Notes: generated by a model not told the origin, from the letters alone. Positions 1 through 19,559 are shown, numbered from the stretch's first letter. The stretch is 19,931 bases of DNA from a virus (IMGVR_UViG_2690316049_000008:1-19931); one strand, 5' to 3'. Translations and numbers: made by a program.

Positions 1-1158
1 ATGCTCACCGTTAAGCAGATTGAAGCAGCAAAGCCGAAAGAAAAACCATACCGCCTACTCGATGGTAATGGCCTGTACCTTTATGTCCCTGTATCAGGGA
101 AAAAGGTATGGCAGCTTCGCTACAAGATTGACGGTAAGGAGAAAATCCTGACCGTCGGAAAATATCCGCTTATGACTTTGCAGGAGGCAAGGGATAAAGC
201 ATGGACCGCGAGGAAAGACATCTCGGTTGGCATCGATCCGGTAAAAGCGAAAAAGGCTTCGTCTAACAACAATTCCTTTAGCGCCATTTACAAGGAATGG
301 TACGAGCACAAGAAGCAAGTCTGGTCAGTAGGCTATGCAAATGAACTTGCAAAAATGTTTGATGACGACATTTTACCTATCATCGGCGGCCTTGAAATTC
401 AGGATATTGAGCCGATGCAACTGCTGGAAGTAATCCGCAGATTTGAAGATCGCGGTGCAATGGAGCGAGCCAACAAAGCCCGCAGAAGATGCGGCGAGGT
501 TTTCCGTTACGCTATTGTCACTGGTAGGGCTAAATATAACCCGGCACCTGACCTTGCTGACGCCATGAAGGGATACCGCAAGAAGAACTTCCCGTTTTTA
601 CCTGCCGACCAGATCCCGGCATTCAACAAAGCACTTGCAACATTTTCAGGAAGTATCGTATCGCTCATTGCGACCAAAGTTTTACGCTACACTGCCCTAA
701 GAACGAAAGAGCTTCGTTCCATGCTATGGAAGAACGTCGATTTTGAAAACAGGATTATCACCATCGACGCCAGTGTGATGAAGGGCCGCAAAATTCATGT
801 GGTCCCGATGTCGGACCAGGTGGTTGAACTTCTCACTACGCTAAGCTCAATCACCAAACCAGTATCAGAGTTTGTTTTTGCCGGGCGCAACGATAAGAAG
901 AAGCCAATCTGCGAGAACGCGGTATTGCTTGTGATCAAACAAATCGGCTATGAGGGTCTGGAAAGCGGTCACGGATTCAGGCATGAATTCAGCACGATTA
1001 TGAACGAGCACGAATGGCCCGCTGATGCTATTGAAGTGCAACTGGCACATGCCAACGGCGGTTCTGTGCGTGGAATTTACAACCATGCTCAGTATCTCGA
1101 CAAACGCAGAGAAATGATGCAGTGGTGGGCAGACTGGCTTGATGGGAAGGTTGATTAA
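1..1158 (+). CDS. int: Tyrosine site-specific integrase, P4/CP4-57-like family
   Basis: 385-aa ORF starting at ATG at position 1. The N-terminus (MLTVKQIEAAKPKEKPYRLLDGNGLYLYV...WQLRYKIDGKEKILTVGKYP) matches the arm-binding domain typical of P4-type integrases. The C-terminus has an H-x-x-R box (GHGFRHEF) and a candidate catalytic Tyr (VRGIYNHAQYL). GC is similar to the phage backbone. Confidence 0.93.
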   Translation: MLTVKQIEAAKPKEKPYRLLDGNGLYLYVPVSGKKVWQLRYKIDGKEKILTVGKYPLMTLQEARDKAWTARKDISVGIDPVKAKKASSNNNSFSAIYKEWYEHKKQVWSVGYANELAKMFDDDILPIIGGLEIQDIEPMQLLEVIRRFEDRGAMERANKARRRCGEVFRYAIVTGRAKYNPAPDLADAMKGYRKKNFPFLPADQIPAFNKALATFSGSIVSLIATKVLRYTALRTKELRSMLWKNVDFENRIITIDASVMKGRKIHVVPMSDQVVELLTTLSSITKPVSEFVFAGRNDKKKPICENAVLLVIKQIGYEGLESGHGFRHEFSTIMNEHEWPADAIEVQLAHANGGSVRGIYNHAQYLDKRREMMQWWADWLDGKVD

Positions 1159-1272
1159 AGAACAATAACAGCGCGTTGCAGCAATTACAGGAAACATCTT
1201 GTTACATACTTGGTTTTATGTCACTAACAAACTAGAGAAATTATGCATGAATAGACATATCGATCGTTATTT

Positions 1273-1288
1273 TTGTTGGTGATATACT
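1273..1288 (+). promoter_or_regulatory. Candidate sigma70 promoter: TTGTTG followed by extended -10 TGaTATACT
   Basis: TTGTTG at 1273-1278 and TGaTATACT at 1280-1288, about 60 bp upstream of the small membrane-protein ORF. Spacing between TTGTTG and the -10 is too short for a canonical -35, so activity would rest on the extended -10. Found by eye only. Confidence 0.2.
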
Positions 1289-1349
1289 TAACTGAATTTT
1301 ATGCACAACCATGTTGCGAATTTACCACATCATTACAAGGCAAACGGAA

Positions 1350-1667
1350 ATGAATAAGGATAAATGCTTAAATATAATTATATTAATAATCATTATAACA
1401 ATAATTGTTATTTCTTTTTATCCTATGTCATCAAGCTCAAAAGGGCATGATACGCAAAGTATTTCAGGTGACAACTTTAAATTAAGATCTTCTTTCTCAA
1501 GAGAATATTCATCATGCATATCAAACCTCAAAATGATAGCGCTAGACTTTGCTGGTCATAACATAGATTTCAACAGCCATAGCCAGTTCATAGCTTCAAG
1601 TGGCGAGGAAAAAATATTAGTAAAATGCACAAAAGATAATAAGTTACTATACATGCAAAATAAATGA
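1350..1667 (+). CDS. Small single-pass membrane or secreted protein of unknown function (~105 aa), cargo gene
   Basis: ORF with stop TGA at 1665-1667. N-terminus MNKDKCLNIIILIIIITIIVISFYP has a positive n-region and a ~20-residue hydrophobic core (signal anchor or signal peptide), followed by a ~80-aa Ser/Asn-rich hydrophilic domain with 3 Cys. Very AT-rich. An alternative in-frame start at 1311 (MLRIY...) would give 118 aa. No strong SD at either start. Followed directly by a strong intrinsic terminator. Confidence 0.5.
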   Translation: MNKDKCLNIIILIIIITIIVISFYPMSSSSKGHDTQSISGDNFKLRSSFSREYSSCISNLKMIALDFAGHNIDFNSHSQFIASSGEEKILVKCTKDNKLLYMQNK

Positions 1668-1673
1668 GAATTT

Positions 1674-1700
1674 CCGCACGCTTATCGCGTGCGGTTTTTT
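1674..1700 (+). terminator. Rho-independent terminator (perfect 8-bp GC-rich stem, 5-nt loop, T6 tract)
   Basis: CCGCACGC (1674-1681), loop TTATC, GCGTGCGG (1687-1694), then TTTTTT (1695-1700), 7 nt after the stop of the small plus-strand ORF. On the minus strand the same hairpin lies just past the stop of the convergent membrane-protein gene but has no U-tract, so it is mainly a plus-strand terminator. Confidence 0.75.
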
Positions 1701-3060
1701 ATTTTTTAGGCAATATATAGTATATTGCCTTATATGAAAAATATACAAATGATACAGTTATTATATTTTTTAAGAAAATAAATAAAAAGAATTCAAGGCT
1801 CTCCCTTGCCATAAAAAATGAAAAAGGCATTGTCATAAGTGCAGCTATTTGTATTACGCCAACTCTCCTCATCAATATGATTTTATCAAGAAATCTAAAA
1901 ACAACGCCTGAGATAACATATGAGCACCAGAAAAAATACTTTCCGAAAATAACAAGCGATGACCCAAGCAAAGTTGATGCCATATTCAATCCATTGCTAA
2001 GACCAAGAGCACTCACGGTAAAGTAATATGAGCTATTCATTGTGACAATTGGTTTGTCAGGCCATATGAATCTTGGGATAAACCCTGAAAATTGAGTAAA
2101 GAAATAATAGATACCACCAACATTGCGATCATTGCTAAAGTATTTAACAGCTATACTCTGATAATTGATAGGAGATACGCTATCAGCTAAATATCTTACT
2201 ATAATGCCAAACAGAGAGCCAGACTCTGAAATATCAACATCTGAGTATCTCACTATAGCCATTATACCAATTAGAATTAAGCACGCAGAGCCTATGCATA
2301 TTAACTTCAATATGCCAATTAGGCCTCTAGAGTGACAAATAAGAGCAACAATAAACATTGCGGAAAACATTACATTTCTTGAGCCACCAATAAGCACATA
2401 ATATGCCATCCCAAATAACAATGACATTATAATTGATTTAACGAACACATACTTATCGTCAGATGTAATTGCATACACTATAACAGCAGAAACAAAAGAT
2501 GACATTATCATTATAATAACACCACTACCAGCATTTCCGCCAAGCTTTAAAGCATAATCATCAGAATTAAAAGATATGCCGTTTATGGCATAAAAAGCCA
2601 TCATCCCAACAAAACTTAAAAACAACGTTGTTCTTACAAATAATTTTGGGCTACCAATAAAATATTTATCAGAAAATGTTATTTTATTTCTTCCTGCCGC
2701 TGTATGAGAGAATACATAAAACAAAACTATACCAATAAACGACAACGTAGACACATCATTTATATATTGATACGGCATATATTCTGCAGAACTAACTTTT
2801 GCCCCAACTCTAAACGGAAGCGATATATACCCAAAAAAATGAGTAAAAACAAGGAATAACATCCCAACAGATTTGAATGACACGCCATGTTTTTTGAATG
2901 ACACGGCACTTAAATATATTAATGTTATGGCATACAACGCAGGTAGCACATAAGTAAAAAATGATTCATAAATATTCATAATATTGTATGTAAAAATGAC
3001 TATTTTTACCCGATCTTTAAAGAAAGTACAGGATGATAGCGCGTTTCTACGCGCCATCAT
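1699..3060 (-). CDS. Polytopic inner-membrane protein (~11-12 predicted TM helices); probable Wzy/WaaL-like O-antigen polymerase or ligase-type surface-polysaccharide protein
   Basis: ORF with stop at 1699-1701. Hydrophobic throughout, with many 18-24-residue hydrophobic segments and one longer, less hydrophobic stretch (roughly residues 275-350) that could be a large periplasmic loop, as in Wzy/WaaL proteins. Extremely AT-rich and Ile/Phe/Tyr/Asn-rich, unlike the neighbouring phage genes. Start is ambiguous: GTG 3066 (overlaps the tailspike stop as GTGA), ATG 3060 or ATG 3057. An AAGGTGA Shine-Dalgarno that contains the tailspike TGA stop sits 2 and 5 nt upstream of the two ATGs, implying translational coupling. 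The functional call is inference from topology, composition and position, not from a recognised motif. Confidence 0.8.
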   Translation of the reverse strand: MMARRNALSSCTFFKDRVKIVIFTYNIMNIYESFFTYVLPALYAITLIYLSAVSFKKHGVSFKSVGMLFLVFTHFFGYISLPFRVGAKVSSAEYMPYQYINDVSTLSFIGIVLFYVFSHTAAGRNKITFSDKYFIGSPKLFVRTTLFLSFVGMMAFYAINGISFNSDDYALKLGGNAGSGVIIMIMSSFVSAVIVYAITSDDKYVFVKSIIMSLLFGMAYYVLIGGSRNVMFSAMFIVALICHSRGLIGILKLICIGSACLILIGIMAIVRYSDVDISESGSLFGIIVRYLADSVSPINYQSIAVKYFSNDRNVGGIYYFFTQFSGFIPRFIWPDKPIVTMNSSYYFTVSALGLSNGLNMASTLLGSSLVIFGKYFFWCSYVISGVVFRFLDKIILMRRVGVIQIAALMTMPFSFFMARESLEFFLFIFLKNIITVSFVYFSYKAIYYILPKK

Positions 3061-3062
3061 AG

Positions 3063-5243
3063 TCACCTTACAACAAATTTGCCATTGCTAATGTCGTTAA
3101 CTAGTGTTGCCACTATGTTAGCAATATCCTTAGTAGATAGGGTGTTTACGTCTCCACCGCGTAACGCACCGGAATTGGTAAATGGATACTGCTGAGGTTG
3201 TGAGCTATTGGCAAACTGGTTGTTAGCCTCATAACGTTTTGTTGGTACAGGGTTGTACCCAATACTACCTGTGGTTGTGTCAGGGGCCACACAGTTCGTA
3301 ATGTTCACTATAGCGTCAGAACCACTACCATTTGTATATATTGGCCTGTTAACTGTCCCGAATGGTTGCACAGCTACCAGCCTGTTAACAATAACACTCT
3401 GTGTGGCTAGTGCTTGTAAATAAGATTCTGCGCTTCCATTGCACCCCCTCAAGTTCACATTATCAACCTCTATGTGGCGGCAGTTAATGATGACGATATA
3501 ATGCCCATTTTCTGTGTTAGGGTAAGCGCCTACTATGCGAACATTTTTTAATGTTAAATCTGTGGTTGGCACCGCAGCAGGCCCACCGTTGAAAACAAAC
3601 CCTTTTGCACCATTTACAAGTGCGTGTATCGTAATGCCGTCAAACTCGATGTCGGCAAGATTAGTCGTGGTATTGGCTGAGTTTCTCAAAAAATAAACAG
3701 CTTCAGCAGAGCAACCTGATATCAAGAAGTTAGAAAAACGCATCCTTGTGTTTTCTACCGGATAGAAGCGGCATAACAAACCCTGCGAGCAGTTACGAAT
3801 AACAACGTTATCGTAGGATACGTCACTAGCTCCTTCAATTGCGACACCTGCGTTCGAACTTTCTACATATAGTCCAGTAACTACTCCATTACGGAAATTC
3901 CCTCGAAGACCGTGGCTTTCACAGTTTTTGATTGTAACGGCGTTTATGTTAACTCTTGTGATAGCTGTGCCATCACCATAACCGTTCATAAGGTCGTCTG
4001 ACTGAATACGCAAACCGTTACCACCAGAGGTATTAATGCTCACATCGTGAATCATAAGATTAAGCGTACGGTTTGGGCGACGTGATGAGAAGAACAAAGA
4101 TGAGGCCCAAGTGTTTCTGCAACGGATATGATGGACGTGCGCCTCTGTGGGGTCATTAACAATGATCGCCATGCCAGTTCGGTTGCTGCCATCTGGATCT
4201 TGAATTTTCCCACGACCACAATCATGTGAGTACAGATTATCGGCAAGAACCCATCTCCCATAATCCATCGTTACGTTGCTATTCCATGCCCCCTGCAATT
4301 CACACCCTGAAAGCTCAAGTGTACCTGCAGATTGCATGGCCAAACCAACCCCTGGGTCAAATGAAGCATTCTGCCGATAAAAATCAAACAAGAAATTACC
4401 GACAATGCGTATATCATATGGAGTATAGTCAAACTCTTGATTTGATTCGTTCCATGTCCGTGGGGATCTGAGCCATAATTGTCTGGAATCTACCGTCACT
4501 TTTGGCAATAACGGCTTTATGAGGATGTCTCCCTGAATATTAAATATACCTTCTACAGTTACGGGAGAGTAAGCGATCCCGATATTTCCAGATAGTGGAA
4601 GTAGTCTACTAAGTTGAGCGTCATTTTGTGCAATTTTCCAACCAGAATTAACCTCGTTAAAAAATGATATTGGGTAAAGTTCAATATTATCATTAATTAC
4701 AGTTGAGTCATAACTGGTAATTGTCAATGGTGATGATAATGGTGTGCTCATCATCATAAGGGCGCCATCAAGCCTAACGAATCTTACACCTTCGGGAATT
4801 AAGTCTCCTATTTTTGCATCAATTCCAATTTTATTAGGATAAACCTCACCACCTAAAAATCCATTCATTCCTCGAAGCCAAGATAGATTTAACATGACTG
4901 ATAACTGATCTGGATCGTACTTCAGCACATTAGGGAAATAGAACTGCTGTGATCCATATGCATCGTACACAGCCATAGAATGCCATTGTACAGTAACGAA
5001 CTTAGCAATCTGTCCGTTATATACAGGGTAGCCAGCAGCGTTAATAATTATTGGTTGCGAAACGGGAATGTGAGAGCCGTCTTCGTTCTCCACATAAACC
5101 TGAATTTGGTTTTCAGGATTTACCGGGTCCGTGTCAATTTTACCGATATAAATTTTGCCATTGGCTACGGCTTTAAAAGAACGAGCCATAGTGAAGAGTT
5201 GCGAAGGCATGCTTACCACAACATTGGCTGTAATGTCTGTCAT
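3063..5243 (-). CDS. Tailspike protein with P22/Sf6-type N-terminal head-binding domain and a divergent C-terminal receptor-binding domain
   Basis: 726-aa ORF. The first ~115 residues ([46 protein letters not shown]...NVLKYDPDQ) match, from memory, the conserved head-binding domain of P22 gp9 and Sf6/HK620 tailspikes. The remainder is Asn/Gly/Ser/Thr-rich with repetitive short beta-strand-like segments, consistent with a parallel beta-helix glycanase domain. GC drops after about nt 4900. SD GGAG lies 9 nt upstream of the ATG. Confidence 0.93.
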
Positions 5244-5262
5244 TTAATTTGCTCCGGACGTA

Positions 5263-5298
5263 GCAATTCCGGACAAGATGCAACCTGTCCGGCATTGC
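5263..5298. promoter_or_regulatory. 13-bp imperfect inverted repeat (RNA hairpin or possible operator) in the 5' leader of the tailspike gene
   Basis: GCAATTCCGGACA (5263-5275), 10-nt spacer, TGTCCGGCATTGC (5286-5298), with one mismatch. A further direct copy of TCCGGAC is at 5253-5259. It lies 20-55 nt upstream of the tailspike ATG, between the last ejection gene and the tailspike. Confidence 0.3.
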
Positions 5299-5338
5299 AC
5301 TAATGTCAGTTATGATTTGTTAATTATGAGGTGAGTCT

Positions 5339-5416
5339 ATGCAAAGAGATCTGTTGAACATTGCGTTCTACATAGTTGGTTTTTGCACGTTCCTGGTGTT
5401 TGCGAAGCTATTCTGA
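5339..5416 (+). CDS. Hypothetical 25-aa hydrophobic peptide (MQRDLLNIAFYIVGFCTFLVFAKLF), antisense to the late operon
   Basis: ATG at 5339 preceded by GAGGTGA (5328-5334) at 4-nt spacing; stop TGA at 5414-5416. Overlaps the 3' end of the gp16-like gene by 9 nt on the opposite strand. The peptide is one predicted TM helix. Too short for the ORF track, no homology evidence, could be chance. Confidence 0.2.
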   Translation: MQRDLLNIAFYIVGFCTFLVFAKLF

Positions 5417-7405
5417 CAACGCATCAGACTTGGCCCCCTGAGTCAGGGCGTTAATGGCCTTTTGCGCCTGCTGCATGGCTTTCTCAAACGCTGTTGATCC
5501 GCGTGGTGTACTTGCCATTCTGAGCATTGCATTTCTGAATGGCTCGCTCTCATAGGCGCGAGTAAGAAGTCCGTAGCTTACTGCTGCGCCAGTTGTTGCA
5601 GGGTTCATTGCCGTCCCATACCCGATAATGAACGGGATGGTTTGCTGCCCTGTTGGTGTTGTTACTGCCGCTTTTGCAGCCTGCTGCGTGGATTGCAGGT
5701 AGTTTTTCAATCCTTTCAGATAAGCAGCGTCCTGCCCCTTAAATGTGATGCCAGTCTGGTTTTGCAGGATGTTAAGCTGCCGAAGGAACTGGTCAGGGGA
5801 TCCTCCAGATTTCTCCATCGCCTTTCCAATAATGCCATTGCGCATTTGCGCCCTGCCAACACGACCAACTGAGTTATACAGAGTCTTAATTTCCGATTTG
5901 TTCTTGCTGAATAGCATGTTGTTGACAACTTCCGGCGTCAGATCGCCTTTCATGAGAACATTCTTCAGCCTGGTATTCTTTAGTTTAGCCGCTTCGTCAG
6001 CGTAGACGGCATTGGCCTGCTGATATTTACGGAGAGTATCGTTGCCAAGATTCTGTCCAATGGCACCATTGATATCGTCGGTCATTGCCTTGTAAACGCG
6101 CTGAATGGCAGCATCGGAACGGTTTGGTAACACTGGTCGCTCACCCTTCACGTCCATTCTGAACTGGCTGCGCAGATCGCTTAATTGCTTCAAATCCAGA
6201 TTTACCGGACCATCAGGACCAGCATTGCGAACAAGCTCATCACGATAGGACTGAAGTTTTGAAATAGTCTCGTTATCAGCTACCTTACCAAGCTTCTGCA
6301 GATTAGATATTTCTGTATCAATCTGCTGAATTGCTCGTGCAGGCTGAATGTTTACTCCTGCCATAGCATTCTGAACCCGCTCCAGTCGATTACCTGCGGC
6401 ACGACGAATTCCTGATGTTTTCGCTTTAAGGCTGTCAATAACAACAGCTGGATCATACTCACCGAATTTATCAGCAAATCTCTGCACCAACTGGCTTCTC
6501 GCTTCCTGTTGCGTTGCTCTCATTCCGCTTGTGCCAGCCAGAGGGATATTTTCTGCTGTAGTCTGCGCCATTTTTCCGACGCGGGAAGTTGGGTGTAACA
6601 GGTCTGTGGTGTGCAGAGGAACACCTTCACGCTCTGCAAATCTGATAGCCTGCTGCGCTTCTGGCGCAATAGCACCACGAACGCCACGATAAGCAGCACC
6701 TAATCCACGTCCGGCAGCGTTAATAGCACCGCCAGCAAGTACACCAACGCCTAAATCGGTGGCGAGTGCTTCCGCATCATCTTTCGCACTATTTGCAGCA
6801 AGTGATCCAACTGCGTTTTCTGCGAGAAGGCGAGTTGCACCCTGAGCAATTCGACCAGCAAGTGTTGGTGCCTGTGTTGCAGCTCTCTCAACTCCAGCAG
6901 GAGTGAGGTAAGGCAATGCTTCAGCAAATACCCTTCCCTCTGTCGTTTGTGGAGTCAGCACGCCTTGCTGAAGGCCAAAGTCCTGCTCTAATCCCTGCGT
7001 TGTTACTCGTGGCGCTGGTTGATATGTCCCATCGCCAATGCCAAGTTTACCGCCAGCCCAAGCCGCCGCGCTTGTTACAGCATCGGCAACTGATGCAGGT
7101 ATGTTTGCCACGTTCACGCCAGCCTGTACCAGTCCGCGACCAGTCTCTTTTACTGCTTCGCCAAGATCAGACATAAATCCACTTTGCTGTGGTTGTTGCT
7201 GTGCTACTGGCTGTTGTGTCTCCACTGGCTGCACAGATGGCAATGGATAGGCAGCATAGAAAGCTTGCTTAGCCTGCTCTGCATTTTCTCCGGCTTGCGG
7301 GGCCACGACTTCATTGAAGTATTGCTCCTGAGCCTGCGCTTTTTGTTCTGGTGCTAACGCCTGATACTGTGGAGAGGCGATAACATCTTTCCATGCTTTA
7401 GCCAT
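5408..7405 (-). CDS. Ejection (injection) protein, P22 gp16-like
   Basis: 665-aa ORF, third of three consecutive ejection-protein genes in the P22 order gp7-gp20-gp16, directly upstream of the tailspike. Ala/Gln/Gly-rich low-complexity composition typical of these proteins. ATG at 7405 overlaps the upstream stop as TAATG; SD GGGGTGA. Confidence 0.8.
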   Translation of the reverse strand: MAKAWKDVIASPQYQALAPEQKAQAQEQYFNEVVAPQAGENAEQAKQAFYAAYPLPSVQPVETQQPVAQQQPQQSGFMSDLGEAVKETGRGLVQAGVNVANIPASVADAVTSAAAWAGGKLGIGDGTYQPAPRVTTQGLEQDFGLQQGVLTPQTTEGRVFAEALPYLTPAGVERAATQAPTLAGRIAQGATRLLAENAVGSLAANSAKDDAEALATDLGVGVLAGGAINAAGRGLGAAYRGVRGAIAPEAQQAIRFAEREGVPLHTTDLLHPTSRVGKMAQTTAENIPLAGTSGMRATQQEARSQLVQRFADKFGEYDPAVVIDSLKAKTSGIRRAAGNRLERVQNAMAGVNIQPARAIQQIDTEISNLQKLGKVADNETISKLQSYRDELVRNAGPDGPVNLDLKQLSDLRSQFRMDVKGERPVLPNRSDAAIQRVYKAMTDDINGAIGQNLGNDTLRKYQQANAVYADEAAKLKNTRLKNVLMKGDLTPEVVNNMLFSKNKSEIKTLYNSVGRVGRAQMRNGIIGKAMEKSGGSPDQFLRQLNILQNQTGITFKGQDAAYLKGLKNYLQSTQQAAKAAVTTPTGQQTIPFIIGYGTAMNPATTGAAVSYGLLTRAYESEPFRNAMLRMASTPRGSTAFEKAMQQAQKAINALTQGAKSDALSE

Positions 7406-8799
7406 TAATCACCCCATAGTGAAGAAAAGTTACTGCTGGCTGCTGGTTGTGATACCTGTGCAGGTTGAGATTGCTGCCGCTGAGATTTACCAACATTAAC
7501 GTTATATTGTTGGTTGTAATTGTTGGTGTATTCCTGAATCTCACGAATCGACTGCTGCATAGCCTCCGGGCTTGAATAGTCAACCTGCGGCATCCCCTGA
7601 AAATACATCTTCGCTTCTGCAACGGTGTTAATACCACTGGCCCCCATGTCCCTTGCTGCCGCCACACCCTGATTCTGCATTCTGCCCTGAATACGTTGTG
7701 CTGAGTTATATAACTGGCGCTGCTCTTTTCCTGTTAATCGGCTGCGAACATCAGCACCAATTGCCGGGTTACCTGCGCCGCCGGTCATTCCTGTCATGAA
7801 ATCGAGAGCAGAAGCGTCTGCATTTGCGATCGCGTCGATATCCTTCTTCATGGCATAGTTTTGTGCTGATGCAGACGATGTTGCAGGCGCTGCGATTGAA
7901 CTGGCAGGAACGCGAACCATATTCCCCTCGTTGTCGATGCCTTCGTAGAACGCATTTGCCCCAGCGCCGTGAAGTTTCCCGCCAACCGTTACAGTTCTGC
8001 CATCTGATAACTGAACTGTACGCTCATCATTCCCAGCGGTTCCTCTTGTTGACGCTCGCTGCATTGCCAAATCCTGCCCGCGTCGCGCAGTAGAAGCAGA
8101 TAAATCCTGACCGCGCATCGTGATGTTCTGACCTCGTGCTGTTAGCGCCTCTCCAGCCTGATTGCTGCGGATTGTCTCTGCAAGTTTTCCGCGATCAATC
8201 TCACGCCCAACGATTCTGTCTTGCGCCTGAAAATATTGTTCTGGACCAAGTGCAGCCATTCCAAGGTGATCAACAAACTCTGTGAAACCTTGTGGATTTT
8301 GCTGATACATTTTCGCCACATCCAGAGGGTCTACTCCGGCACGAGTAAGCTCAGATGAGTTGTTCTGCAACCATGACATCATGGCTTCTGGAGATGAAGC
8401 TGCCAGTCTGGCACTTGCTGCCAGTGTGCCGACAGTGGAACGCTGGTCTTCATCGACAAATTTCATGCCGTTTCTTACAGCGTCAAACTGCTCAGGATAC
8501 TGTGATGCCAGTTTTCGCATTGCATCGCGGTCACCAGATGTATATGCATCAGCATAAGCCTGCTGAAACTCTTGCTGTCGCTTCTGCTGATCCATCTGCT
8601 TATACATATCCATGACAGATGAAATGCCCTGCAAAGCCTGCAAGCCAACGTTATTACGTCCTGAACGCTCCATCTCGTTATTCTGTCGAATGTATGCAAG
8701 CGTGGCGTCTGCATCACTTGCTCTTGGAGCGTTGGAGTTCATGCCGCCTAACCCGGCAAGAAGCGCGCCTGAATTACCAGCCTGTTGCCATGTAGCCAA
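7405..8799 (-). CDS. Ejection (injection) protein, P22 gp20-like
   Basis: 464-aa ORF in the position and size class of P22 gp20. The first codon at 8799 is TTG, preceded by a strong SD GGAGGTG at ~5-nt spacing immediately after the upstream stop, so a TTG start is likely. Confidence 0.8.
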
Positions 8800-8811
8800 G
8801 AGACACCTCCA

Positions 8812-9471
8812 TTAAAACAGTGAACCAAGAAGGCCGACGCCAGCACCAATTGCTGTACCCCAACCAGGCATGATTGCAGTACCCATCGCAGCACCTGCCG
8901 CAGCTCCACCGAGAGCACTCTGAAAACCAGACGGTTTATTGGCATTTGCTGCCGCTGCCGCCGCCTGCTGTTGATACAATTGGCTGACGTTGTTAGCGTA
9001 GTTCTGCCCGGCGTTTGCCTGACCTGTAAGAGCACCAAGGCCAATGTTTGCCAGATTGTTGTAGTTGTTCATCTGACCTGACAGCCAGTTTTGACCGAGT
9101 GTAGGTGCGATTGCTGCTAACTGGTTTCCTGTTGCTGTAGAGCCTAATCCACCCGTTGCCTCTGCTGCAGCAAGACTCTGATAGCGCGCCTGCCCTGCAA
9201 GGTCTTTATACTGCTGGGAGTTGTAATACTGGTTAAGCGCCTGACCTTGCCCCTGAAGAGAGGAAAGATTCTGCAACTGTGATACGTACTGCTGAGCGAG
9301 TGGCGTGAACGGTGCAAGGTTCTGCATGTTTGTCTGCCACATTTCACGCTGCAATTCGATACCCTTTTCAGTTGCGCGTGCCTGGGCTTTAGAGCCGGAG
9401 TCGCTGCCGCCTTTCATGTACCCATTCATGGGAAGCAATTTATTCTTGAAGCTTTCGCTAAGTACCAACAT
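8812..9471 (-). CDS. Ejection (injection) protein, P22 gp7-like
   Basis: 219-aa ORF with a Gly/Ala/Gln-rich C-terminus ending in a hydrophobic Gly-rich tail, and a KGGSDSGSKAQARATE motif resembling P22 gp7. ATG at 9471 is preceded by GAGGAG at 7-nt spacing. Overlaps the gp14-like gene by 14 nt. Confidence 0.8.
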   Translation of the reverse strand: MLVLSESFKNKLLPMNGYMKGGSDSGSKAQARATEKGIELQREMWQTNMQNLAPFTPLAQQYVSQLQNLSSLQGQGQALNQYYNSQQYKDLAGQARYQSLAAAEATGGLGSTATGNQLAAIAPTLGQNWLSGQMNNYNNLANIGLGALTGQANAGQNYANNVSQLYQQQAAAAAANANKPSGFQSALGGAAAGAAMGTAIMPGWGTAIGAGVGLLGSLF

Positions 9472-9925
9472 TTAATAGCTCCTCATATTTCGAACGAGGT
9501 AATTGATAGAGGGTGATTCCTACCGGTTTTCCGTTACTCATGTACGCATCATCAAGGTGACCAACACGGGTAGCGCCAAGCAAACGGATAATTGCCCGTC
9601 CATATTTTGTGGTGTCAGGAACCATAGTGATGCTGTTAAGGAATGGTGAGTTTTCGAGAAGCCACTTGCAGAATAATCGATGCCCTTGCAGTGCATATTC
9701 ACCACGGAATCCGGGGTCGTACACCGCATGGCATTCAACAACGCTATGCCAGAAGTTACGCACTTCATGAACGCCAGCCAGCACTAATCCTTCGTAGATG
9801 CCGAGATATACCGCATCAGGCTTGATGTAGTATTTATCTCCACTGTCTACGATATTTCCCGTGTTTGCCGGGTTGTTGAGGAATTCTGCAAGCTTCACCG
9901 GATTATCGATGAGCTTTATTTCCAT
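9458..9925 (-). CDS. P22 gp14-like protein (role annotated only by position in the late operon)
   Basis: ORF in the gp14 position between tail needle and ejection genes. The track starts at GTG 9928, but ATG 9925 has the better SD spacing (GGAG 5 nt upstream) and overlaps the tail-needle TGA stop as TGATG. Confidence 0.75.
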   Translation of the reverse strand: MEIKLIDNPVKLAEFLNNPANTGNIVDSGDKYYIKPDAVYLGIYEGLVLAGVHEVRNFWHSVVECHAVYDPGFRGEYALQGHRLFCKWLLENSPFLNSITMVPDTTKYGRAIIRLLGATRVGHLDDAYMSNGKPVGITLYQLPRSKYEELLNVGT

Positions 9926-10878
9926 CACTGCTCCGCAATGATTTTGATGGTTGTGGCAGTAAACGCCGCACCATTAGACTGAATGGTTAACGTACTGCCA
10001 TTTGTGGCAAGAAAGCCGTCTTTATCCACGCTGAAGAACGTAGCTAACAGGATGTTGTCGGTTGTTGTCGCCGAGTTGCGACTGCTTACCAGTGTGTCAG
10101 GAACAGAACCGGAAAAAGTTAGCTGCATTGACCTGTTGGCGGTTCCGCTGGGCCACGTCCCAACAATCGACAGCTTGAAGAACAAGGTTTTGTTCTCGTT
10201 GAACACAACCATCTTGTTGTTAACGGTGTCGAAGAATGGTGCCAACTCACCGGATGACGGCGTGAGCGTTTTCAGCAGGCTAACAAGGTTGGTAGGCGAT
10301 GTCGGAATTGTTACCGATACCCCTGAGTAAACAACCTCTGATTTCTTGCGCGTGGTGGCATACTCAAGCGCAGATATTCTTGTTGAGTGATCACCAACTG
10401 TGCTTTGTAGCGTCGAAATACTTCCCTCTGCCGCTGTGAGCCTGGTATCAAGTGCGTCGATATCGGTTGTATTCTGAGTTATGCGCGCATCATGGTTTGC
10501 TAACTCAGATTCATTGGCAGCAATTCGCGTCTCGTGATCAGCCAGCTCTGTTTCAGCAGCCGTAATCCTTGTTTCATGATCTGCAAGAGTGCTTTCCGCT
10601 GCTGCAATTCTATGTTCATGATTGATGAGAGTTGCTTCAGCAGCTTCAATTCTGGATTCATGGTCTGCAAGGGTGACATCCTGCTCATCGTTCCTGACCT
10701 GTGCATCATAAGCGCCCTGTCCGGCCTCGTTGGCTTTGTTAGCCACGTTACCAACATCAGTGCCCTGTGCGATAACGTAAAGCAGATACGACTGCGAGAA
10801 GATATTGCGTGGAAGGACTGATGTGTCGAGCCGTGTAGCCTGAATGATTACCGGCACATTGAGATTCGAATCAGCCAT
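9925..10878 (-). CDS. Tail needle protein (P22 gp26-like) with trimeric coiled-coil repeats and a C-terminal knob domain
   Basis: 317-aa ORF. The N-terminal ~65 residues ([43 protein letters not shown]...) match the conserved gp26 N-terminal hub-binding region. The centre holds 14-residue (double-heptad) repeats of the [11 protein letters not shown] type. The C-terminal ~140 residues are a Ser/Thr-rich globular extension absent from P22 gp26, consistent with an Sf6-type knob. ATG overlaps the gp10-like stop as TAATG. Confidence 0.88.
10459..10677 (-). repeat. Imperfect tandem 42-bp (14-codon) repeats, about 5 copies, inside the tail-needle gene
   Basis: Protein-level repeats [14 protein letters not shown] / [14 protein letters not shown] / [14 protein letters not shown] / [14 protein letters not shown] / [14 protein letters not shown] are mirrored by ~42-nt DNA repeats; 10546-10587 was checked to encode [14 protein letters not shown]. 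Short ORFs on both strands in the ORF track here are frame shadows of this repeat. Confidence 0.7.
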
Positions 10879-12296
10879 TACTCAATCCTTATCTGGCAGC
10901 CTGACAGAGTGACAGGTGACTTCGTGATAACGCGCAATTTGAAACCGACATTTTTCCTGATGCGCCCTACTCGCTTCCACAAAACGCGTTTGTCGTAAAC
11001 GAACGGTTCATTCTGCTCAATCATCTGCTCACGCCCGTAATTGATGCCGTCAGTGGTTGCAGAGAGAAAAAGGCGGTCAGCATACTGCGCAACTCCAGTT
11101 GAAGATTCAACTTCAAGGTCGAAAACTCTGGCGTTATCTGCTTTGAACAACGGAGTAAACAGCAGGTGTTCCTGCTGCTTGTCGTACTGACTGCTGATAT
11201 CGAACTGCAATTTCCCGGTCACCGATTCCAGCTTATCGCCGCACGTTATCTGATTTCCTTCGTAAATGAAGTCGATAGCGCGGTACACATCGTCATACAA
11301 GCCTGTTTTCAACACACACCATTGCGGACCATTGGCGCTTGAAGATGCGTCGTACACGAGGACGTGGCGCGGAAGGTGGATAATCAGCAACTCATGAGCA
11401 TCAAATCGTAGAGACTCCATCACGCCATCAGCCAGTTCATCAGCAGTGTAGGAGCGGAGGATTTTCTCAATGCTCGCGCTGGCGATTGGTGATACCTGAC
11501 CGGAGCCGATGATGTAAACAGACGGCGCACCTGTTGCCGGATTGCTGATGAACGCATACGAATCAGCAAACGGCGTTTTGCAGTAGGTTCCGGCGATTCC
11601 TTTTTGCACCATCAACGATGGCTGGGCGACATACAAAGCGGCACCAACAGTGGTTGCACCAGTCAGGGAAAAATATTCAATCGTCGATGAACCAAAGCAG
11701 ACGATGAAGTCTCGCCATGTTCCGATGCCGATGATGCCGTCAGGCTGCGATTCTGCGCGATATTGTGCGCTGTATCGGTCAGGATGTGATTCGTCTTCAA
11801 GGTCAGTGATAAACCATGAATCAGTGCCGTCTTTTGACCACGCATAACGCCCACGTAAGCGCGTAATGTCGCGTACTGAGCCTAACTCATACTGCGTGAA
11901 TCCGCTGTCTGTAGGCCAGTTTGAGACGGTTTTAACCGTGCCATCATAGCGATACTCGACCAGTTTCCCGTTAACGCCTACCGCCTGTGATGTCCGACCA
12001 TGCGCCATTGATACACGACCACTTCCGGCGACGTCACCGACTTCACTTTCGCCTTTGTACAGCTTGCCACCACACACGCGATAAACAGCATTCTGCGCCA
12101 TGTTGTACTCGACGCCACGCGATACGCCGTTCACATCAGAACGTTTGGCAATGCCCGGGAATGAGCGAAGATATCCGCTGCTGTTAAGGATTTCTTTTGG
12201 TGTAGCCAACATATTCACTGGCAGATAGTCGATATAGTCGGCGTTTCGGAAGTCTTTGCCGACACCTTTCATAAGCGGAAGTTGCTGAATCGGCAT
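10878..12296 (-). CDS. Tail hub / head-completion protein, P22 gp10-like
   Basis: 472-aa ORF, matching the length I recall for P22 gp10 and sitting in its position downstream of the gp4-like gene. ATG at 12296 with SD AGGTGA 5 nt upstream. Confidence 0.85.
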
Positions 12297-12355
12297 TTAT
12301 TCACCTATGCGTTTGGGATATCGCCATCAATCAGAGGGAGATCGCCTGGATAATA

Positions 12356-12787
12356 TCAGTCAGATGTAAACACGTCATATTTATTACCCTGTCCTACAGG
12401 AAAATCTCCACGTCGTCGCATTGAAGGAACAACCAGAGTGTCGGTCATCAAGGCATCATATGAGCGTTGGGCGTTACTGAGAACTTGCGGAGTTGGTTCA
12501 AGGCTGTAATCAGATAGCATTCTCAGCAATAACTGATAGCCTACTGCGTGTTTGTATTTTCTTGGAAGACCTGACTCATCATCTGGTAATGGCTGATCAT
12601 CTCCAGTTGCGAAAGCGTAACCAATGTCGCCGGGGTTAATCATCCACTCGGACATCATATCTTCCAGATCATTTACACCATCTTCAATTGATTGCGGCTC
12701 AACATCAGTCAGCGATGCATTAGAAGCAATAGCAAACTTACGAAGCGCAAAAAGGACGATCTCACCCTTTGTCAGTACTGTTGCCAT
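12356..12787 (-). CDS. Head-to-tail adaptor protein, P22 gp4-like
   Basis: 143-aa ORF whose N-terminus (MATVLTKGEIVLFALRKFAIASNASLTDVEPQS) aligns with what I recall of P22 gp4. It is the first gene after the coat gene and small ORF, as expected. Confidence 0.82.
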   Translation of the reverse strand: MATVLTKGEIVLFALRKFAIASNASLTDVEPQSIEDGVNDLEDMMSEWMINPGDIGYAFATGDDQPLPDDESGLPRKYKHAVGYQLLLRMLSDYSLEPTPQVLSNAQRSYDALMTDTLVVPSMRRRGDFPVGQGNKYDVFTSD

Positions 12788-12947
12788 TGTCTGCCGCCTT
12801 ACGACCTCGCTTACTGGTCGGTTTCAATTCATCAACTGAGGCAACAAAGCCCAACCTTTCGAAAAACTGGAAGTCTTTTTCTGCGATAACGGCCTGTACA
12901 TGCCCGGATTCGTTATCTGCGGCAAGGAATACACTCATCCGATCCAT
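12762..12947 (-). CDS. Small hypothetical protein (61 aa) between coat and adaptor genes
   Basis: ATG at 12947 preceded by a good SD (AAGGAA, 5-nt spacing). Overlaps the start of the gp4-like gene by 26 nt in another frame. No recognisable motif. Confidence 0.45.
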   Translation of the reverse strand: MDRMSVFLAADNESGHVQAVIAEKDFQFFERLGFVASVDELKPTSKRGRKAADNGNSTDKG

Positions 12948-12958
12948 ATTGTTTCCTT

Positions 12959-12986
12959 AAAACATAAAAGGGGCGTAAGCCCCTTG
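12959..12986 (-). terminator. Intrinsic terminator-like hairpin immediately after the coat gene (probably partial or leaky)
   Basis: On the minus strand, right after the coat TAA stop: AAGGGGC, loop TTAC, GCCCCTT, then TTATGTTTT (7-bp stem; stem and loop at 12968-12985). It is followed by the SD of the next small ORF, so some readthrough into downstream late genes is expected. Confidence 0.6.
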
Positions 12987-12989
12987 TTA

Positions 12990-14261
12990 TTACGGATTAC
13001 CGAAGAACTGACCGCCCATGTGAGGGTTAAAGCACACATATGCAGGCAGTAAGTCGAAGCGCATTTTTTGCACGTTGGCATCGCCATCTGCGTATTTATG
13101 TACGCGGATGGAGAAACCTTCATATGTTGCAACAGCAGAATCAATACTGTGCAGTTTCGGCAGTGGGATAGAGCCAAGTCCACAGAAGAACTTGTTATAG
13201 AACAGGTTTGGCTTCATTGTCTGGCTAGCAGTGCCTACTACAGATACGGCATCGCCTGCCTCTACCTGACGACTTACAGAGTTGTACTGCGGGTTTGTAG
13301 TGTCATAAATCGGAACACCAGAAAGCGTAACCGTCACATCGCCACCGCTGTCTGAATTAGCATCAGCAGTAACCGTTGCAGTGAAGCTAATTGGTGTGGT
13401 TCCGTTATACAACGCCTGTTTGGTCTGCTGTTGCAGCCAGTAGGTATTGGTGAATTTGACCTGATCACCAGCTTTCAGAAAACCTGTAACGCTGGCTGTC
13501 GCTCCGGTCAATGTTACAGTGAACTGGTATGAGTCTTTAACTGCGTTATAGGTAACAGTTGGCTGTGTTTTGACTGTCAGTGTTCCGCCAAATGCCCCCT
13601 GCGTACGAGAGGCAAGCCCATTAGACATCAGTGCGCGAATGCCGCCAAAATTGGTTGGGATCTGTGCGTTCTCCCATGCAGTACGAACCAATTGATCTGA
13701 AGCATGCAAACCAGTCTGCGCATCAGCAAGTCGCTGTGCAGACCATGGATCCATTACAGCATAGTTTTCACCTTCATTAACGCCGAGGTCTTTCAGGAAA
13801 GATGCCGTCTGCGCAACATCAGACCATTTGGTGATTGGAGTATTGGGGCTACCAAGTGACAACGCACCGTTATTCATCATGAAGTGAGCAAGCTCTGTTT
13901 CAAGGTCGGTAACGATTCGCTGGCGAACCGGCGCGAGAATTCCTTCCAGCTGGTTAAGCTTGATCGCTTCCTCCAGTTGCTGATATTCAACAGCAACAGT
14001 GATGTAGTTACCTACACGCCCCGTAGCTTTACCTGAGATCAGGTTGTTTTTATTTTTCCCTGAAATATCACCAGTGGGAGTACGGAGGGATGAGAATTGA
14101 TGCGGACGTTTAAAGCTAACGCTATCGCCAGTGCTGGAGTTGATTTCACCTGCCAGCAACTGACGGTCTACGGTTTTCGCCAGAACTAAATCTGACATAA
14201 AACCCGGAAGGAATTTTTTCAGAACGATTTGACTGACGTTACTGTCGAGATTGTTAGGCAT
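12990..14261 (-). CDS. Major capsid (coat) protein, P22 gp5-like
   Basis: 423-aa ORF directly after the scaffold gene and before a terminator hairpin, the classic P22-like order portal-scaffold-coat. Strong SD (AAGGAA, 7-nt spacing). Confidence 0.88.
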   Translation of the reverse strand: MPNNLDSNVSQIVLKKFLPGFMSDLVLAKTVDRQLLAGEINSSTGDSVSFKRPHQFSSLRTPTGDISGKNKNNLISGKATGRVGNYITVAVEYQQLEEAIKLNQLEGILAPVRQRIVTDLETELAHFMMNNGALSLGSPNTPITKWSDVAQTASFLKDLGVNEGENYAVMDPWSAQRLADAQTGLHASDQLVRTAWENAQIPTNFGGIRALMSNGLASRTQGAFGGTLTVKTQPTVTYNAVKDSYQFTVTLTGATASVTGFLKAGDQVKFTNTYWLQQQTKQALYNGTTPISFTATVTADANSDSGGDVTVTLSGVPIYDTTNPQYNSVSRQVEAGDAVSVVGTASQTMKPNLFYNKFFCGLGSIPLPKLHSIDSAVATYEGFSIRVHKYADGDANVQKMRFDLLPAYVCFNPHMGGQFFGNP

Positions 14262-14272
14262 TTATCTTTTCC

Positions 14273-15157
14273 TTATTCGATTTTTGCGCCGGGGCATAAT
14301 TTGTTGAATTCGTCTTGTTTCGCATCAGCACCGCCACCACGTACTTCCGGCTCTGGCTTGATGGCTTTCTTTGGTTTTGGAGCAAGGCTTACCTGTTTGC
14401 TAATCTGCCCCAAGAGGAATGCTGCGCGAATTGGATCTGTCTCAGCGGCTACACGCTGGCGTAATTGCTGGCTCTTGCCTAAGCCATAGGCGAGTAGTTC
14501 AGAGCCTTCGTCTGCACAGTGAATGATGATTTCCTGCTGAATTGGTGGTAGCTCACTAAGAACAATGGCTTCCATTTCCTGATAATCTTTCACAGGAAGT
14601 TTGGCTGCCCGTTGTTTATGCGCTTCTACCCTTTGCTGGAAACGCTGCTGGTATTCCTGTTGCTGACGTAGTTTTTGTTGCTGCTGCTGTTCGACACGGC
14701 CTTTTTTCTCATGCCAATCAGTCAATGCCTGTTCAAACGCCTGTTCGTCATAATCACACGACTCAAGAGTCGGTTTTGGTGGAATAGCGTCTGGTTGTGG
14801 TTGCTGATGTTCCGCTGGCTTGGCTAATGCTTCCTCAAGCTGGCGGCGCAACTCACGGTTTTCTTTCTGTGTTTCTTTGAAGCCTTTGCGAAGATCTTTC
14901 ACCCATTGCGGCGCAGGTTGCCCGTCAATGTGATCATCATCGTCAGCGTTAAGCTGAATTTCTTCATCACCAATACGCAAGGCGTAATCTTCTGGTGTCT
15001 CTTCGGTTTTTTCAGGCTCAGTTGCCACCTCTTTACCGTTGTCATCCTGGCTTTCATTCTCAGGCTGTGACTCTGTTTGGATGATGGTTTCTTCTGCATT
15101 TTCCTGTGTTTCAGACAGGTCAATAACCTGACCGTCGATGATCAGTTCGTTTTCCAT
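14273..15157 (-). CDS. Scaffolding protein, P22 gp8-like
   Basis: 294-aa ORF between portal and coat. Highly acidic N-terminal half, Gln/Arg-rich predicted helical middle (QQQQQKLRQQQEYQQRFQQRVEAHKQR) and a basic C-terminus, as in phage scaffolds. SD AGGAG 6 nt upstream of the ATG. Confidence 0.82.
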   Translation of the reverse strand: MENELIIDGQVIDLSETQENAEETIIQTESQPENESQDDNGKEVATEPEKTEETPEDYALRIGDEEIQLNADDDDHIDGQPAPQWVKDLRKGFKETQKENRELRRQLEEALAKPAEHQQPQPDAIPPKPTLESCDYDEQAFEQALTDWHEKKGRVEQQQQQKLRQQQEYQQRFQQRVEAHKQRAAKLPVKDYQEMEAIVLSELPPIQQEIIIHCADEGSELLAYGLGKSQQLRQRVAAETDPIRAAFLLGQISKQVSLAPKPKKAIKPEPEVRGGGADAKQDEFNKLCPGAKIE

Positions 15158-15170
15158 TGATTACTCCTGG

Positions 15171-17297: not shown

Positions 17298-17299
17298 GT

Positions 17300-18712
17300 T
17301 TACCAACCGGAGGATGAGGGAACGTATATTTCTGTTTCTTCGCGGACCAATGCCGGGCAATGCATACACATCATCAGCGCATCAGCCAGGTTAGGAGATG
17401 AAATACCGAGCTTCTGCTTCATTTCGACCTTAGTCATAAGCTCCAGCTTCCCGTTATTATTGAATTTGCGCTGAATCTGCGTCAGTTCTGCAAACAGCTT
17501 CTCCAGCATCTTCTCGCCTATCACTTCTTTGTCGAAACTCAGCATGTCGTCGGGGTCTGCATACTCACCGTGGACAACCGCCCGATATGTCAGATACAGC
17601 CTGTCAGCCAGCGCGTAATAGAATTGCGCTCGCTTATTGCGGAATACATCGCCAATAGTGCGAACGTTGTCGCCCTGTACGACTTCATCAGCCCATGCTC
17701 CGGCCTGATACGGAGCATCTTCATCGAATGGCGATTCGCTGCCCTTGAACATCGTGGCGGTGATTTTCTTGCCGGAGAACGCTTCCGTTGTCTGTCTGCG
17801 TAGCCCGGCACCAACACCATCACCATCCCACAGGTAATGGTCAGCGCCGTCTTCAATCGCCAGCGAAGTAGCCCAGTCAGCACCCTCGTTGATGTCCATC
17901 AGCAGACCTTCGGCAATGCGCTTAACTACCGAACCGTGACGCGATGCATAACCTTTAGCATCTGGCCCTGTATCTGATGGGTCATGCGCAGAGACAACAG
18001 CGCCTTTCGCTTTCCATCCGAGTTTCTTGTGCGCATCGGTTGCGGCTTCAAGCCATTCACGTTTGATGATTGCCATATCACTTGCGCTTACTGGCTCACC
18101 AAGCCAGATGTGACGATACAGTGTCGGGTTTCTGCGTTTGCACTCTTCCATCTCCAGACGGAGAACTTCAGGAAAATGCGGGTTGTCGGTGTAGTTCACC
18201 GTCAGCAGGCAAATATCATCGGGAGGATTTACAACGAATCGCTGATAGGTATCGTCGAGTATGTTCTTCGGGTTAAAGCTCACCCATATTTCGGAAAACG
18301 GCTTGCGGATGGTTGGAATCAGGATATCCCACGATTCCTTTGTTACCGCTTCCGCTTCTTCCACCCAGCAAATATCAATGCCTTCTAGCGATTTAATCTT
18401 CGTCGGGTTGTTTTTGATGCCGTAGAACATGAATTCAGCATTCGTTCCGAGATGACGAATCATTGAACGCTGAATTTCAAACTCAGACGAATACCCTTCC
18501 CGCTCTATGGTGTCTTCAAGCAACCGGATTACCGAATCGCTGATACTGTTTTGCAGTTCACGAGCGCAGAGAATACGCACTGGCTGACGACGCGCCGCTT
18601 CAACAAGCAGCCTAGCAATTGCCCATGACTTACCGCTACCTCGACCGCCTTTGGCGACTTTGTAGCGATGCGCCTCAATGAACGGTTCAAAGATAGGATT
18701 AATCGAGGTCAT
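17300..18712 (-). CDS. terL: Terminase large subunit
   Basis: 470-aa ORF with an N-terminal Walker A P-loop (KGGRGSGKS) and Walker B-like hydrophobic-DE (ICWVEEAEA), followed by a C-terminal acidic nuclease-type region. ATG overlaps the terS stop as ATGA. Closely resembles the Sf6-type large terminase as I recall it. Confidence 0.93.
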   Translation of the reverse strand: MTSINPIFEPFIEAHRYKVAKGGRGSGKSWAIARLLVEAARRQPVRILCARELQNSISDSVIRLLEDTIEREGYSSEFEIQRSMIRHLGTNAEFMFYGIKNNPTKIKSLEGIDICWVEEAEAVTKESWDILIPTIRKPFSEIWVSFNPKNILDDTYQRFVVNPPDDICLLTVNYTDNPHFPEVLRLEMEECKRRNPTLYRHIWLGEPVSASDMAIIKREWLEAATDAHKKLGWKAKGAVVSAHDPSDTGPDAKGYASRHGSVVKRIAEGLLMDINEGADWATSLAIEDGADHYLWDGDGVGAGLRRQTTEAFSGKKITATMFKGSESPFDEDAPYQAGAWADEVVQGDNVRTIGDVFRNKRAQFYYALADRLYLTYRAVVHGEYADPDDMLSFDKEVIGEKMLEKLFAELTQIQRKFNNNGKLELMTKVEMKQKLGISSPNLADALMMCMHCPALVREETEIYVPSSSGW

Positions 18713-19134: not shown

Positions 19135-19213
19135 ATTGATTATTTCCCTTCTGCTTGCTTATCCCATTCATCGCGGAATTTGGATGGGTTGTCGAAACCT
19201 TGAGTTGCCATGT

Positions 19214-19456: not shown

Positions 19457-19475
19457 TGTTGGCTCCGTTTATCCG

Positions 19476-19503
19476 TTAAAAGGGATATCAGTTAAGTTAT
19501 CCC
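19476..19503 (-). terminator. Weak terminator-like hairpin between the gp66-family gene and the 80-aa ORF
   Basis: On the minus strand: GGGATA, 10-nt loop, TATCCC, then TTTTAA (6-bp stem, 19482-19503). Stem is short and the loop large, so function is uncertain. Confidence 0.3.
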
Positions 19504-19559
19504 GTGTAGGGTATAAGCCATTATCAAAGCCACTCAGTAAGGAATGGCTTTTGTAATAA

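Follow-up and report, generated by a model that had tools for sequence, protein, structure and literature searches.

The stretch of viral DNA analysed here (IMGVR_UViG_2690316049_000008:1-19931, 19,931 nucleotides in total, hereafter the window) carries, between an integrase gene and a tailspike gene, an AT-rich block at positions 1159-3062 that holds two convergent open reading frames (ORFs), a large one, designated wzy in what follows, and a small one. The GC content across positions ~1200-3000 is 0.28-0.36 (computed in 300-nt windows), with values of 0.45-0.50 on the integrase side and of 0.42-0.48 on the tailspike side. By feature, it amounts to 0.34 for the gap 1159-1349, 0.29 for the small ORF, 0.32 for the large ORF and 0.35 for the gap 2980-3062, and outside the block to 0.48 for the integrase and 0.49 for the backbone (5400-19931), which bears out the initial annotation of this DNA, where the block was described as far more AT-rich than the phage backbone. 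The same annotation placed the block in the slot where P22-like phages carry their conversion genes, and this assignment holds, given the P22/Sf6-like backbone, the integrase and tailspike flanks and the relatives of the large ORF that lie beside gtrABC elsewhere.

The large ORF encodes, as judged from its sequence, a Wzy-type repeat-unit polymerase, for which activity on units linked to undecaprenyl diphosphate (Und-PP) is predicted. The Pfam model WzyE (PF06899) matches it with 68.2 bits against a gathering score of 25 (E 9e-19), the alignment spanning ORF residues 39-428 and model positions 10-406 of 447, and PF06899 is likewise found in 11 of 11 database homologues. The NCBIfam equivalog for the polymerase of the enterobacterial common antigen (ECA) scores 70.8 bits against a cut-off of 510, so that the product is a member of the WzyE-like family and not WzyE itself. 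WzyE is the sole Pfam family at E <= 1, with no match to acyltransferase-3, GtrA/GtrB/GtrC, Wzy_C/WaaL or transporter families; the search of PHROGs gave none, and that of NCBIfam nothing beyond the ECA-polymerase model. The profile searches proposed in the initial annotation therefore single out a polymerase family and leave acyltransferase-3, GtrC, Wzy_C and transporters unmatched: from the pair of candidates offered there, a Wzy polymerase or a WaaL ligase, the former is retained and the latter falls. Nor can the protein be called wholly undescribed, as it was then, since RefSeq already labels it 'WzyE family oligosaccharide polymerase'.

Concerning its architecture, an AlphaFold model (ten homologues; pLDDT 83.3, pTM 0.85) shows ~11 long membrane helices and, at residues 245-350, a loop of ~100 residues with short helices; the hydropathy segments agree, in keeping with the ~11-12 hydrophobic segments and one long loop initially described. 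The positive-inside rule suggests an N-out, C-in orientation for the modelled protein. An alignment of 10 sequences (18-62% identity) contains the invariant residues R201, R244, R303, K309, R392 and E393, which by the same rule would be located in periplasmic loops. For the Pseudomonas aeruginosa Wzy, published work maps Arg-dependent catalysis to periplasmic loops with RX10G motifs (PMC3854497); no motif-level correspondence between these motifs and the residues of the phage protein was established. Solved structures gave no match to the large-ORF product, either by sequence or with Foldseek.

The extent of the gene deserves a comment. The open frame runs from 1699 to 3066 on the minus strand (455 codons), reaching a GTG at 3066, and the RefSeq start is inconsistent, with ATG 3060 (453 aa) in most genomes, 426 aa in strain J31 and 416 aa in strain E94. 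The Met encoded at 2979 corresponds to the start of the chromosomal homologues and of homologue P0003, and homologue P0002 also has a Met there. As the homologues start at this Met, and the RefSeq model of J31 uses the equivalent start, 1699-2979 was taken as the gene (Table 1).

Table 1. Features of the AT-rich block and of the genes flanking it (window positions).
Feature	Position	Strand	Basis or remark
IntS-type tyrosine integrase	1..1158	+	Pfam Phage_integrase, Phage_int_M, Arm-DNA-bind_3
AT-rich spacer, GC 0.34	1159..1349	.	Upstream of small ORF
Orphan ORF, 105 aa (alternative ATG 1311: 118 aa)	1350..1667	+	ORF call, RefSeq start
GC-rich hairpin, 8 bp, 7 GC pairs, T-runs	1674..1694	.	Between convergent ORFs; terminator scan and sequence
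wzy, predicted Wzy-type (WzyE-like family) repeat-unit polymerase, 426 aa	1699..2979	-	Pfam WzyE, AlphaFold, homologue starts
12-bp hairpin and T-rich tract, terminator-like	3033..3060	-	Directly after tailspike stop; holds RefSeq start ATG 3060
Tailspike, whole	3063-5243	-	P22 Head_binding domain
Tailspike receptor-binding/enzymatic part, aa 120-726	3063..4886	-	Co-inherited with wzy
Tailspike N-terminal P22-type head-binding domain, aa 1-119, virion adaptor	4887..5243	-	Pfam Head_binding, E 6e-66, residues 1-113

Only 11 relatives of the phage Wzy emerged when 5.8 billion proteins were searched, and three of them are phage-borne and share 55-62% identity with it. All non-phage relatives with readable context head one and the same cassette, wzy-wzx-(orf498)-GT4-Alg14-Alg13, with ugd next in the complete loci; examples come from Vibrio cholerae, Photobacterium damselae and two metagenomic contigs, and in the two named species the cassette is placed after wza-wzb-wzc. 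These cassette polymerases (33-37% identity), and not WzyE, are the nearer relatives of the phage protein. Two peptide patterns, run against 100,044 species-representative genomes, yielded no relative. The gene itself is under purifying selection: over eight lineages, 15 synonymous and 6 conservative non-synonymous changes were counted (pN/pS 0.11, p = 2e-6), and wzy is intact in a prophage reduced to ~12 kb as well as where IS3 has split the tailspike.

The linkage between wzy and the tailspike extends to its receptor-binding part (aa 120-726), which is found in exactly the same 27 Escherichia coli genomes as wzy. On a metagenomic contig (L004), a 62%-identical wzy comes after a tailspike with a 70%-identical receptor-binding part and an unrelated N-terminal adaptor, and this adaptor is shared with the tailspike of an IMG/VR prophage (L018) whose receptor-binding part is unrelated. 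In the IMG/VR prophages of the L018 type, which are absent among complete E. coli genomes, the genes downstream of the tailspike are, in this order, a 56%-identical wzy, a membrane ORF of 51 aa and gtrC-gtrB-gtrA. Hence wzy belongs to prophage conversion loci and has co-diverged with one spike specificity in two lineages. Downstream of the 62%-identical wzy (L004:3840-4076, minus strand) there is also a 78-codon ORF with a GtrA-like N-terminus, which looks like the remnant of a gtr operon akin to the intact one of L018.

The receptor-binding domain is also 68-69% identical to a protein of coliphage G7C (HQ259105) that is annotated as 'tail fiber/tail protein' and that, given where it lies and which PHROG it matches, is probably gp66, and to the spikes of the large phages MK-13 (Shigella, MK509462) and fGh-Ecl02 (Enterobacter, ON212266). 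No receptor is assigned to G7C gp66 in the literature examined; the association with the host described next suggests that a polymer of glucuronic acid and N-acetylglucosamine (GlcA/GlcNAc), made by a chromosomal cassette, may be the receptor of the G7C-type spike.

In host strain 124, the galF-gnd interval holds a six-gene cassette, wzy-wzx-orf496-GT4-pssD-pssE, and the gnd-his interval a mannan cluster of the O8 ABC-transporter type. All 6 genes of this E. coli cassette have homologues in the Vibrio and Photobacterium cassettes, with 32-55% identity (the cassette common to the E. coli O8 galF-gnd region and the V. cholerae and P. damselae capsule loci is found at L002:12079-17957, L008:10001-15923 and L014:8001-13868). 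The chromosomal Wzy of the cassette and the phage Wzy share 31% identity (E 1e-37), the range against host Wzy being 27-31%, and the GC content of the cassette, 0.30, is similarly low as that of the phage block. An exact-sequence look-up gave the UniProt names 'Putative O-antigen polymerase' (O30626), 'Putative GlcNAc transferase' (O30629) and 'N/C terminus subunit of GlcA transferase' for cassette proteins. The orf496 product (496 aa) has no Pfam family and shows a faint asparagine-synthase-like match (E 1e-3); it may be an enzyme that amidates a uronic acid. As an unconfirmed lead, we take the cassette to be the K40 cluster of E. coli O8:K40:H9, whose repeat unit reportedly contains GlcA amidated with serine and two GlcNAc.

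Polymers of the ABC-transporter pathway are not polymerised by Wzy. Because the O8 cluster of strain 124 is of this type, the main O antigen is unlikely as the target, and the phage Wzy more likely acts on a second polysaccharide, a GlcA/GlcNAc polymer that depends on Wzx/Wzy and whose genes lie between galF and gnd. On this point the interpretation departs from the O-antigen reading in the initial annotation, which had spoken of an O-antigen or surface-modification module.

Of 5426 complete E. coli genomes, 27 have the block and 67 (1.2%) the cassette. The cassette, with an intact chromosomal wzy, occurs in 24 of the 27 block carriers (Fisher p = 4e-45), in at least 7 lineages. The cassette-negative carriers fit a model in which the phage enzyme uses cassette units, one by an exchange of the O locus and the others by a frameshift in the phage gene. 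In N273 (L011), a member of the carrier clone, the entire galF-his region is swapped to an O131-like cluster, which is an O-antigen switch within the clone; cassette and O8 cluster were replaced together, and the incoming sialic-acid (neuBC) cluster has a wzzB pseudogene. In E92 and E94, both O180, the phage wzy has a 10-bp deletion after codon 2, at codon 3, that shifts the frame; in E94 (L012) the deleted segment, window positions 2964-2973, lies between the direct repeats ATGAAT...ATGAAT. The O8 mannan was also considered as the relevant partner and rejected, as the O8 ABC-transporter genes wzm/wzt occur in 277-308 genomes and the module is confined to cassette-positive genomes plus three non-O8 carriers: in the host, it is the cassette that goes together with the module, and not O8. 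Two cassette-positive genomes free of the module, A10 (NZ_CP195143, ~2,112,820) and MY203L1 (NZ_CP115186, ~302,149), contain a segment of 266 nt that matches the beginning of the receptor-binding region with 90% identity, within a 'phage tailspike protein' ~21-24 kb from the cassette.

The small ORF has one hydrophobic segment, an N-terminal anchor spanning roughly residues 7-24, and a tail of 80 residues for which an extracytoplasmic location is predicted, so that the convergent single-pass membrane protein of ~105 aa initially described is confirmed in outline. No homologue beyond itself was found among the 5.8 billion proteins, Pfam, NCBIfam and PHROGs gave sub-threshold matches only, and no tblastn or blastn similarity was detected downstream of the 55-62% identical phage wzy genes. 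Its variation across the 8 lineages comprises 0 synonymous and 5 non-synonymous changes (neutrality p = 0.59; Fisher p = 0.007 against wzy), and the ORF may not be under selection. Being an orphan, not kept beside related wzy genes and neutral-looking in its variation, it lends no support to the polymerase-inhibitor pairing that the initial annotation had put forward. Its membrane segment also seemed to resemble an ORF of 45 aa in L004, a likeness that came down to a 15-nt match with an E of 0.11 and was dropped.

As to the rest of the window, it holds a structural module of the P22/Sf6 kind, in which coat, gp4, gp10, gp7 and gp20 are those of P22, and needle knob and small terminase are of the Sf6 type. 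The element is inserted, in complete genomes, at the tRNA-Arg gene argW, beside intS, the integrase forming the prophage end; strain 124 has the same integrase gene, annotated intS, 162 nt downstream of tRNA-Arg. In strains STEC306-8, the argW remnant has lost the block, and a second P22-like prophage, at bio-ybhB, carries it; in STEC308 (L023, L024) the tailspike of the argW remnant abuts a truncated intS, and the bio-ybhB prophage has tailspike and wzy. The block thus occurs with two different integration modules, since argW and bio-ybhB prophages both carry it. At window positions 5243-5408, where the tailspike borders on the genes for ejection proteins, the prophage resembles Sf6 in having no immI region (ant, arc, mnt); the otherwise near-identical remnant of strain 124 (L001:24245-25700) has an antirepressor and two Arc-family genes at this position. 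The block was not found in sequenced phages, a megablast against 50,697 phage records giving integrase fragments only. Scans with Pfam, NCBIfam and PHROGs detected no transposase or insertion sequence (IS) signature in the block; with transposase domains absent and the wzy coding sequence under selection, an IS-remnant origin, an outcome for which the initial annotation had allowed, is rejected. In the spacer that precedes the small ORF, the sequence TGATATACT at ~1281-1289 on the plus strand was read by eye as a possible extended -10 element; it did not come up in the consensus scan and is given low weight. The hairpin between the convergent ORFs is terminator-like on the plus strand and could also end the convergent wzy transcript.

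We consider it moderately probable that the block is lysogenic-conversion cargo whose Wzy re-links the units of the host cassette by an alternative linkage. In a lysogen, the 426-aa inner-membrane phage Wzy would take host Und-PP-linked repeat units, made and flipped through the chromosomal six-gene galF-gnd cassette for a GlcA/GlcNAc polymer, and would join them on the periplasmic face via a linkage differing from that of the chromosomal Wzy. The altered polymer would no longer be a substrate or receptor of the tailspike encoded immediately upstream, and the lysogen would change its K/O serospecificity and resist superinfection by phages with that spike. The small ORF is not needed in such a polymerase-replacement model. 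What is observed are the protein family, its architecture, purifying selection, the conversion slot, the tailspike linkage and cassette co-occurrence; which substrate is used, that the linkage changes, that the gene is expressed in lysogens and that adsorption is affected are inferred.

Conversion by means of a polymerase has precedents. The WzyPh1 of an Acinetobacter baumannii prophage (K127 capsule) overrides an intact K-locus Wzy and changes the linkage between units, and it is encoded in unrelated phages, always in hosts with the matching locus (PMC9241936). Both systems have a prophage wzy, a host that keeps an intact Wzy, and relatives that are polymerases of loci for similar units; they differ in genus and in Wzy family, and the linkage change was chemically proven there and is predicted here. 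A further difference is that the present wzy abuts the tailspike and co-diverges with its receptor-binding domain. Phage D3 of P. aeruginosa carries a conversion module of iap, wzy-beta and oac (Newton et al. 2001, as cited in a later paper). The likeness is that a temperate phage supplies an alternative polymerase replacing the host linkage; unlike the present case, where an inhibitor is unsubstantiated and there is no acetylase domain, D3 needs a peptide inhibitor and an O-acetylase.

The gtrABC genes of P22, the oac gene of Sf6 and yfdGHI of the K-12 element CPS-53 at argW occupy the same slot, which runs from the tailspike or phage end to int/att, and have receptor modification as their purpose, but they glucosylate or acetylate finished units, whereas the phage Wzy would change how units are joined. 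Salmonella phage epsilon15 encodes a beta-polymerase and an inhibitor of the alpha-polymerase downstream of its tailspike, and the switch abolishes its own receptor. It is likewise a podovirus with conversion genes beside the tailspike; it differs in having a backbone unrelated to that of P22, in targeting the main O antigen and in that its inhibitors are known. With respect to WzyE, the ECA polymerase, the phage protein shares PF06899 and the polytopic architecture, but it is not an orthologue and is phage-borne at argW, not part of a wec cluster. Kapi1, an E. coli P22-like argW prophage that uses the O antigen as receptor, alters the lipopolysaccharide (LPS) of its lysogen (bioRxiv 10.1101/2021.04.09.439263); it also has its cargo between tailspike and integrase, but its slot holds an acyltransferase-like gene, the conversion gene being unidentified, and no wzy was reported.

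Several points weigh against re-linking of cassette units by the phage enzyme. Many of the 27 carriers apparently belong to one clone (ST410-like, by our estimate), and the Fisher p-value for that reason overstates their independence. The association with the host could reflect tailspike specificity alone, without indicating the Wzy substrate. As the 56%-identical wzy of the IMG/VR prophages follows an unrelated receptor-binding domain, linkage between this spike and wzy is not universal. The promoter scan gave no convincing promoter for wzy, and a terminator-like hairpin stands between tailspike and wzy (the RNA fold of 2975-3075 on the minus strand has -33.6 kcal/mol, z = -5.9 against shuffles), so that expression in the lysogen is assumed. 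The difference from the linkage made by the chromosomal Wzy is a prediction. Finally, the cassette probably specifies the K40 group-4 K antigen of O8 strains, an identification that goes back to depositor names.

Other explanations share part of this evidence. Conversion might have two components, the 105-aa membrane protein inhibiting the chromosomal Wzy and the phage Wzy taking over. The small ORF is adjacent to wzy as well as convergent with it, is always co-inherited, has a single-pass membrane topology and is followed by a strong terminator; a frame of 105-118 codons open in DNA of 29% GC is improbable by chance (estimated at ~5e-5 per start position), small hydrophobic ORFs also come after other phage wzy genes (45 aa in L004, 51 aa in L018), and the inhibitor of D3 is likewise small and hydrophobic (Newton et al. 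2001, as cited in a later paper). We nevertheless regard such a pair as unlikely: the ORF lacks a homologue and has sub-threshold family matches only, is unlike the small ORFs beside related wzy genes, is annotated by RefSeq in some carriers only and, unlike wzy, shows substitutions that are non-synonymous in 5 of 5 cases and compatible with neutrality, and WzyPh1 of A. baumannii was reported to change the linkage with no inhibitor described in the abstract (PMC9241936). Quite unlikely, in our judgement, is also a phage Wzy that serves as a spare or booster with the linkage of the host, giving more or longer polymer, for example to shield other receptors, and leaving serospecificity unchanged. 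Such a role would suit an enzyme that belongs with the cassette polymerases in one family, a thicker capsule can by itself block phages, and the change of linkage is a prediction; but lysogens and non-lysogens have a 100% identical cassette with an intact chromosomal wzy, hence no complementation is needed. In addition, an identity of 27-31% to the host Wzy is typical of polymerases differing in specificity, the spike of the phage would still recognise the polymer, so that no immunity benefit would result, and the proven precedents change the linkage, in A. baumannii as well as in D3 and epsilon15.

The substrate could instead be ECA, its units being re-polymerised by the phage enzyme and the spikes targeting this shared antigen and the label 'WzyE family' being literally true, a proposal that agrees with WzyE and the ECA polymerase being the best Pfam and NCBIfam models, with the receptor-binding domain occurring in phages of three genera (Escherichia, Shigella and Enterobacter) and with ECA being common to Enterobacterales (PMC10743462). 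It is very improbable in view of the score far below the equivalog cut-off (70.8 against 510 bits) and of nearer relatives that are cassette polymerases (33-37%) and not WzyE. ECA is made by all E. coli and so cannot account for the presence in 24 of 27 carriers of a cassette that 1.2% of genomes have, and the phage wzy is frameshifted in an O180 host without the cassette. Hardly tenable, lastly, is the view of the AT-rich block as inert or decaying cargo, a hitch-hiking remnant with no present function. Its low GC suggests a recent foreign origin, many carriers hold a degraded prophage only and no promoter was identified, but wzy is under strong purifying selection (pN/pS 0.11), stays intact while neighbouring phage genes decay, and has diverged in step with the tailspike domain from one phage lineage to another (62% and 70% identity).

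In the literature searched, phage-encoded wzy is described almost only for Acinetobacter, with none in E. coli, and a review of E. coli O antigens ties prophage-driven diversification to gtr genes only (PMC7685785). If polymerase replacement by the phage Wzy is true, it would be the first E. coli example of this type of conversion. Typing from the rfb or K locus alone would then be wrong for O8 lysogens, including the ST410 O8:H9 clone B4/H24RxC (PMC10786849), and the same typing problem has been found for A. baumannii capsules (PMC9241936). In a wider and much more speculative picture, which we hold only tentatively, spike domain and wzy might form a portable 'recognise and rewrite' cassette, moving across unrelated adaptors and acting on a second K antigen (probably K40) beside the O8 mannan. 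Prophages would in that case set K structure and the susceptibility to phages and antibodies in O8 lineages, carbapenem-resistant ST410 among them, and the receptor of the G7C, Shigella and Enterobacter phage spikes would be the GlcA/GlcNAc polymer. Were replacement to hold, a testable receptor would be at hand for the tailspikes of virulent phages that are candidates for therapy, such as G7C-like phages, MK-13 and fGh-Ecl02, and the strict linkage of spike and wzy suggests a simple rule by which the polymer that a prophage both uses and alters may be predicted.

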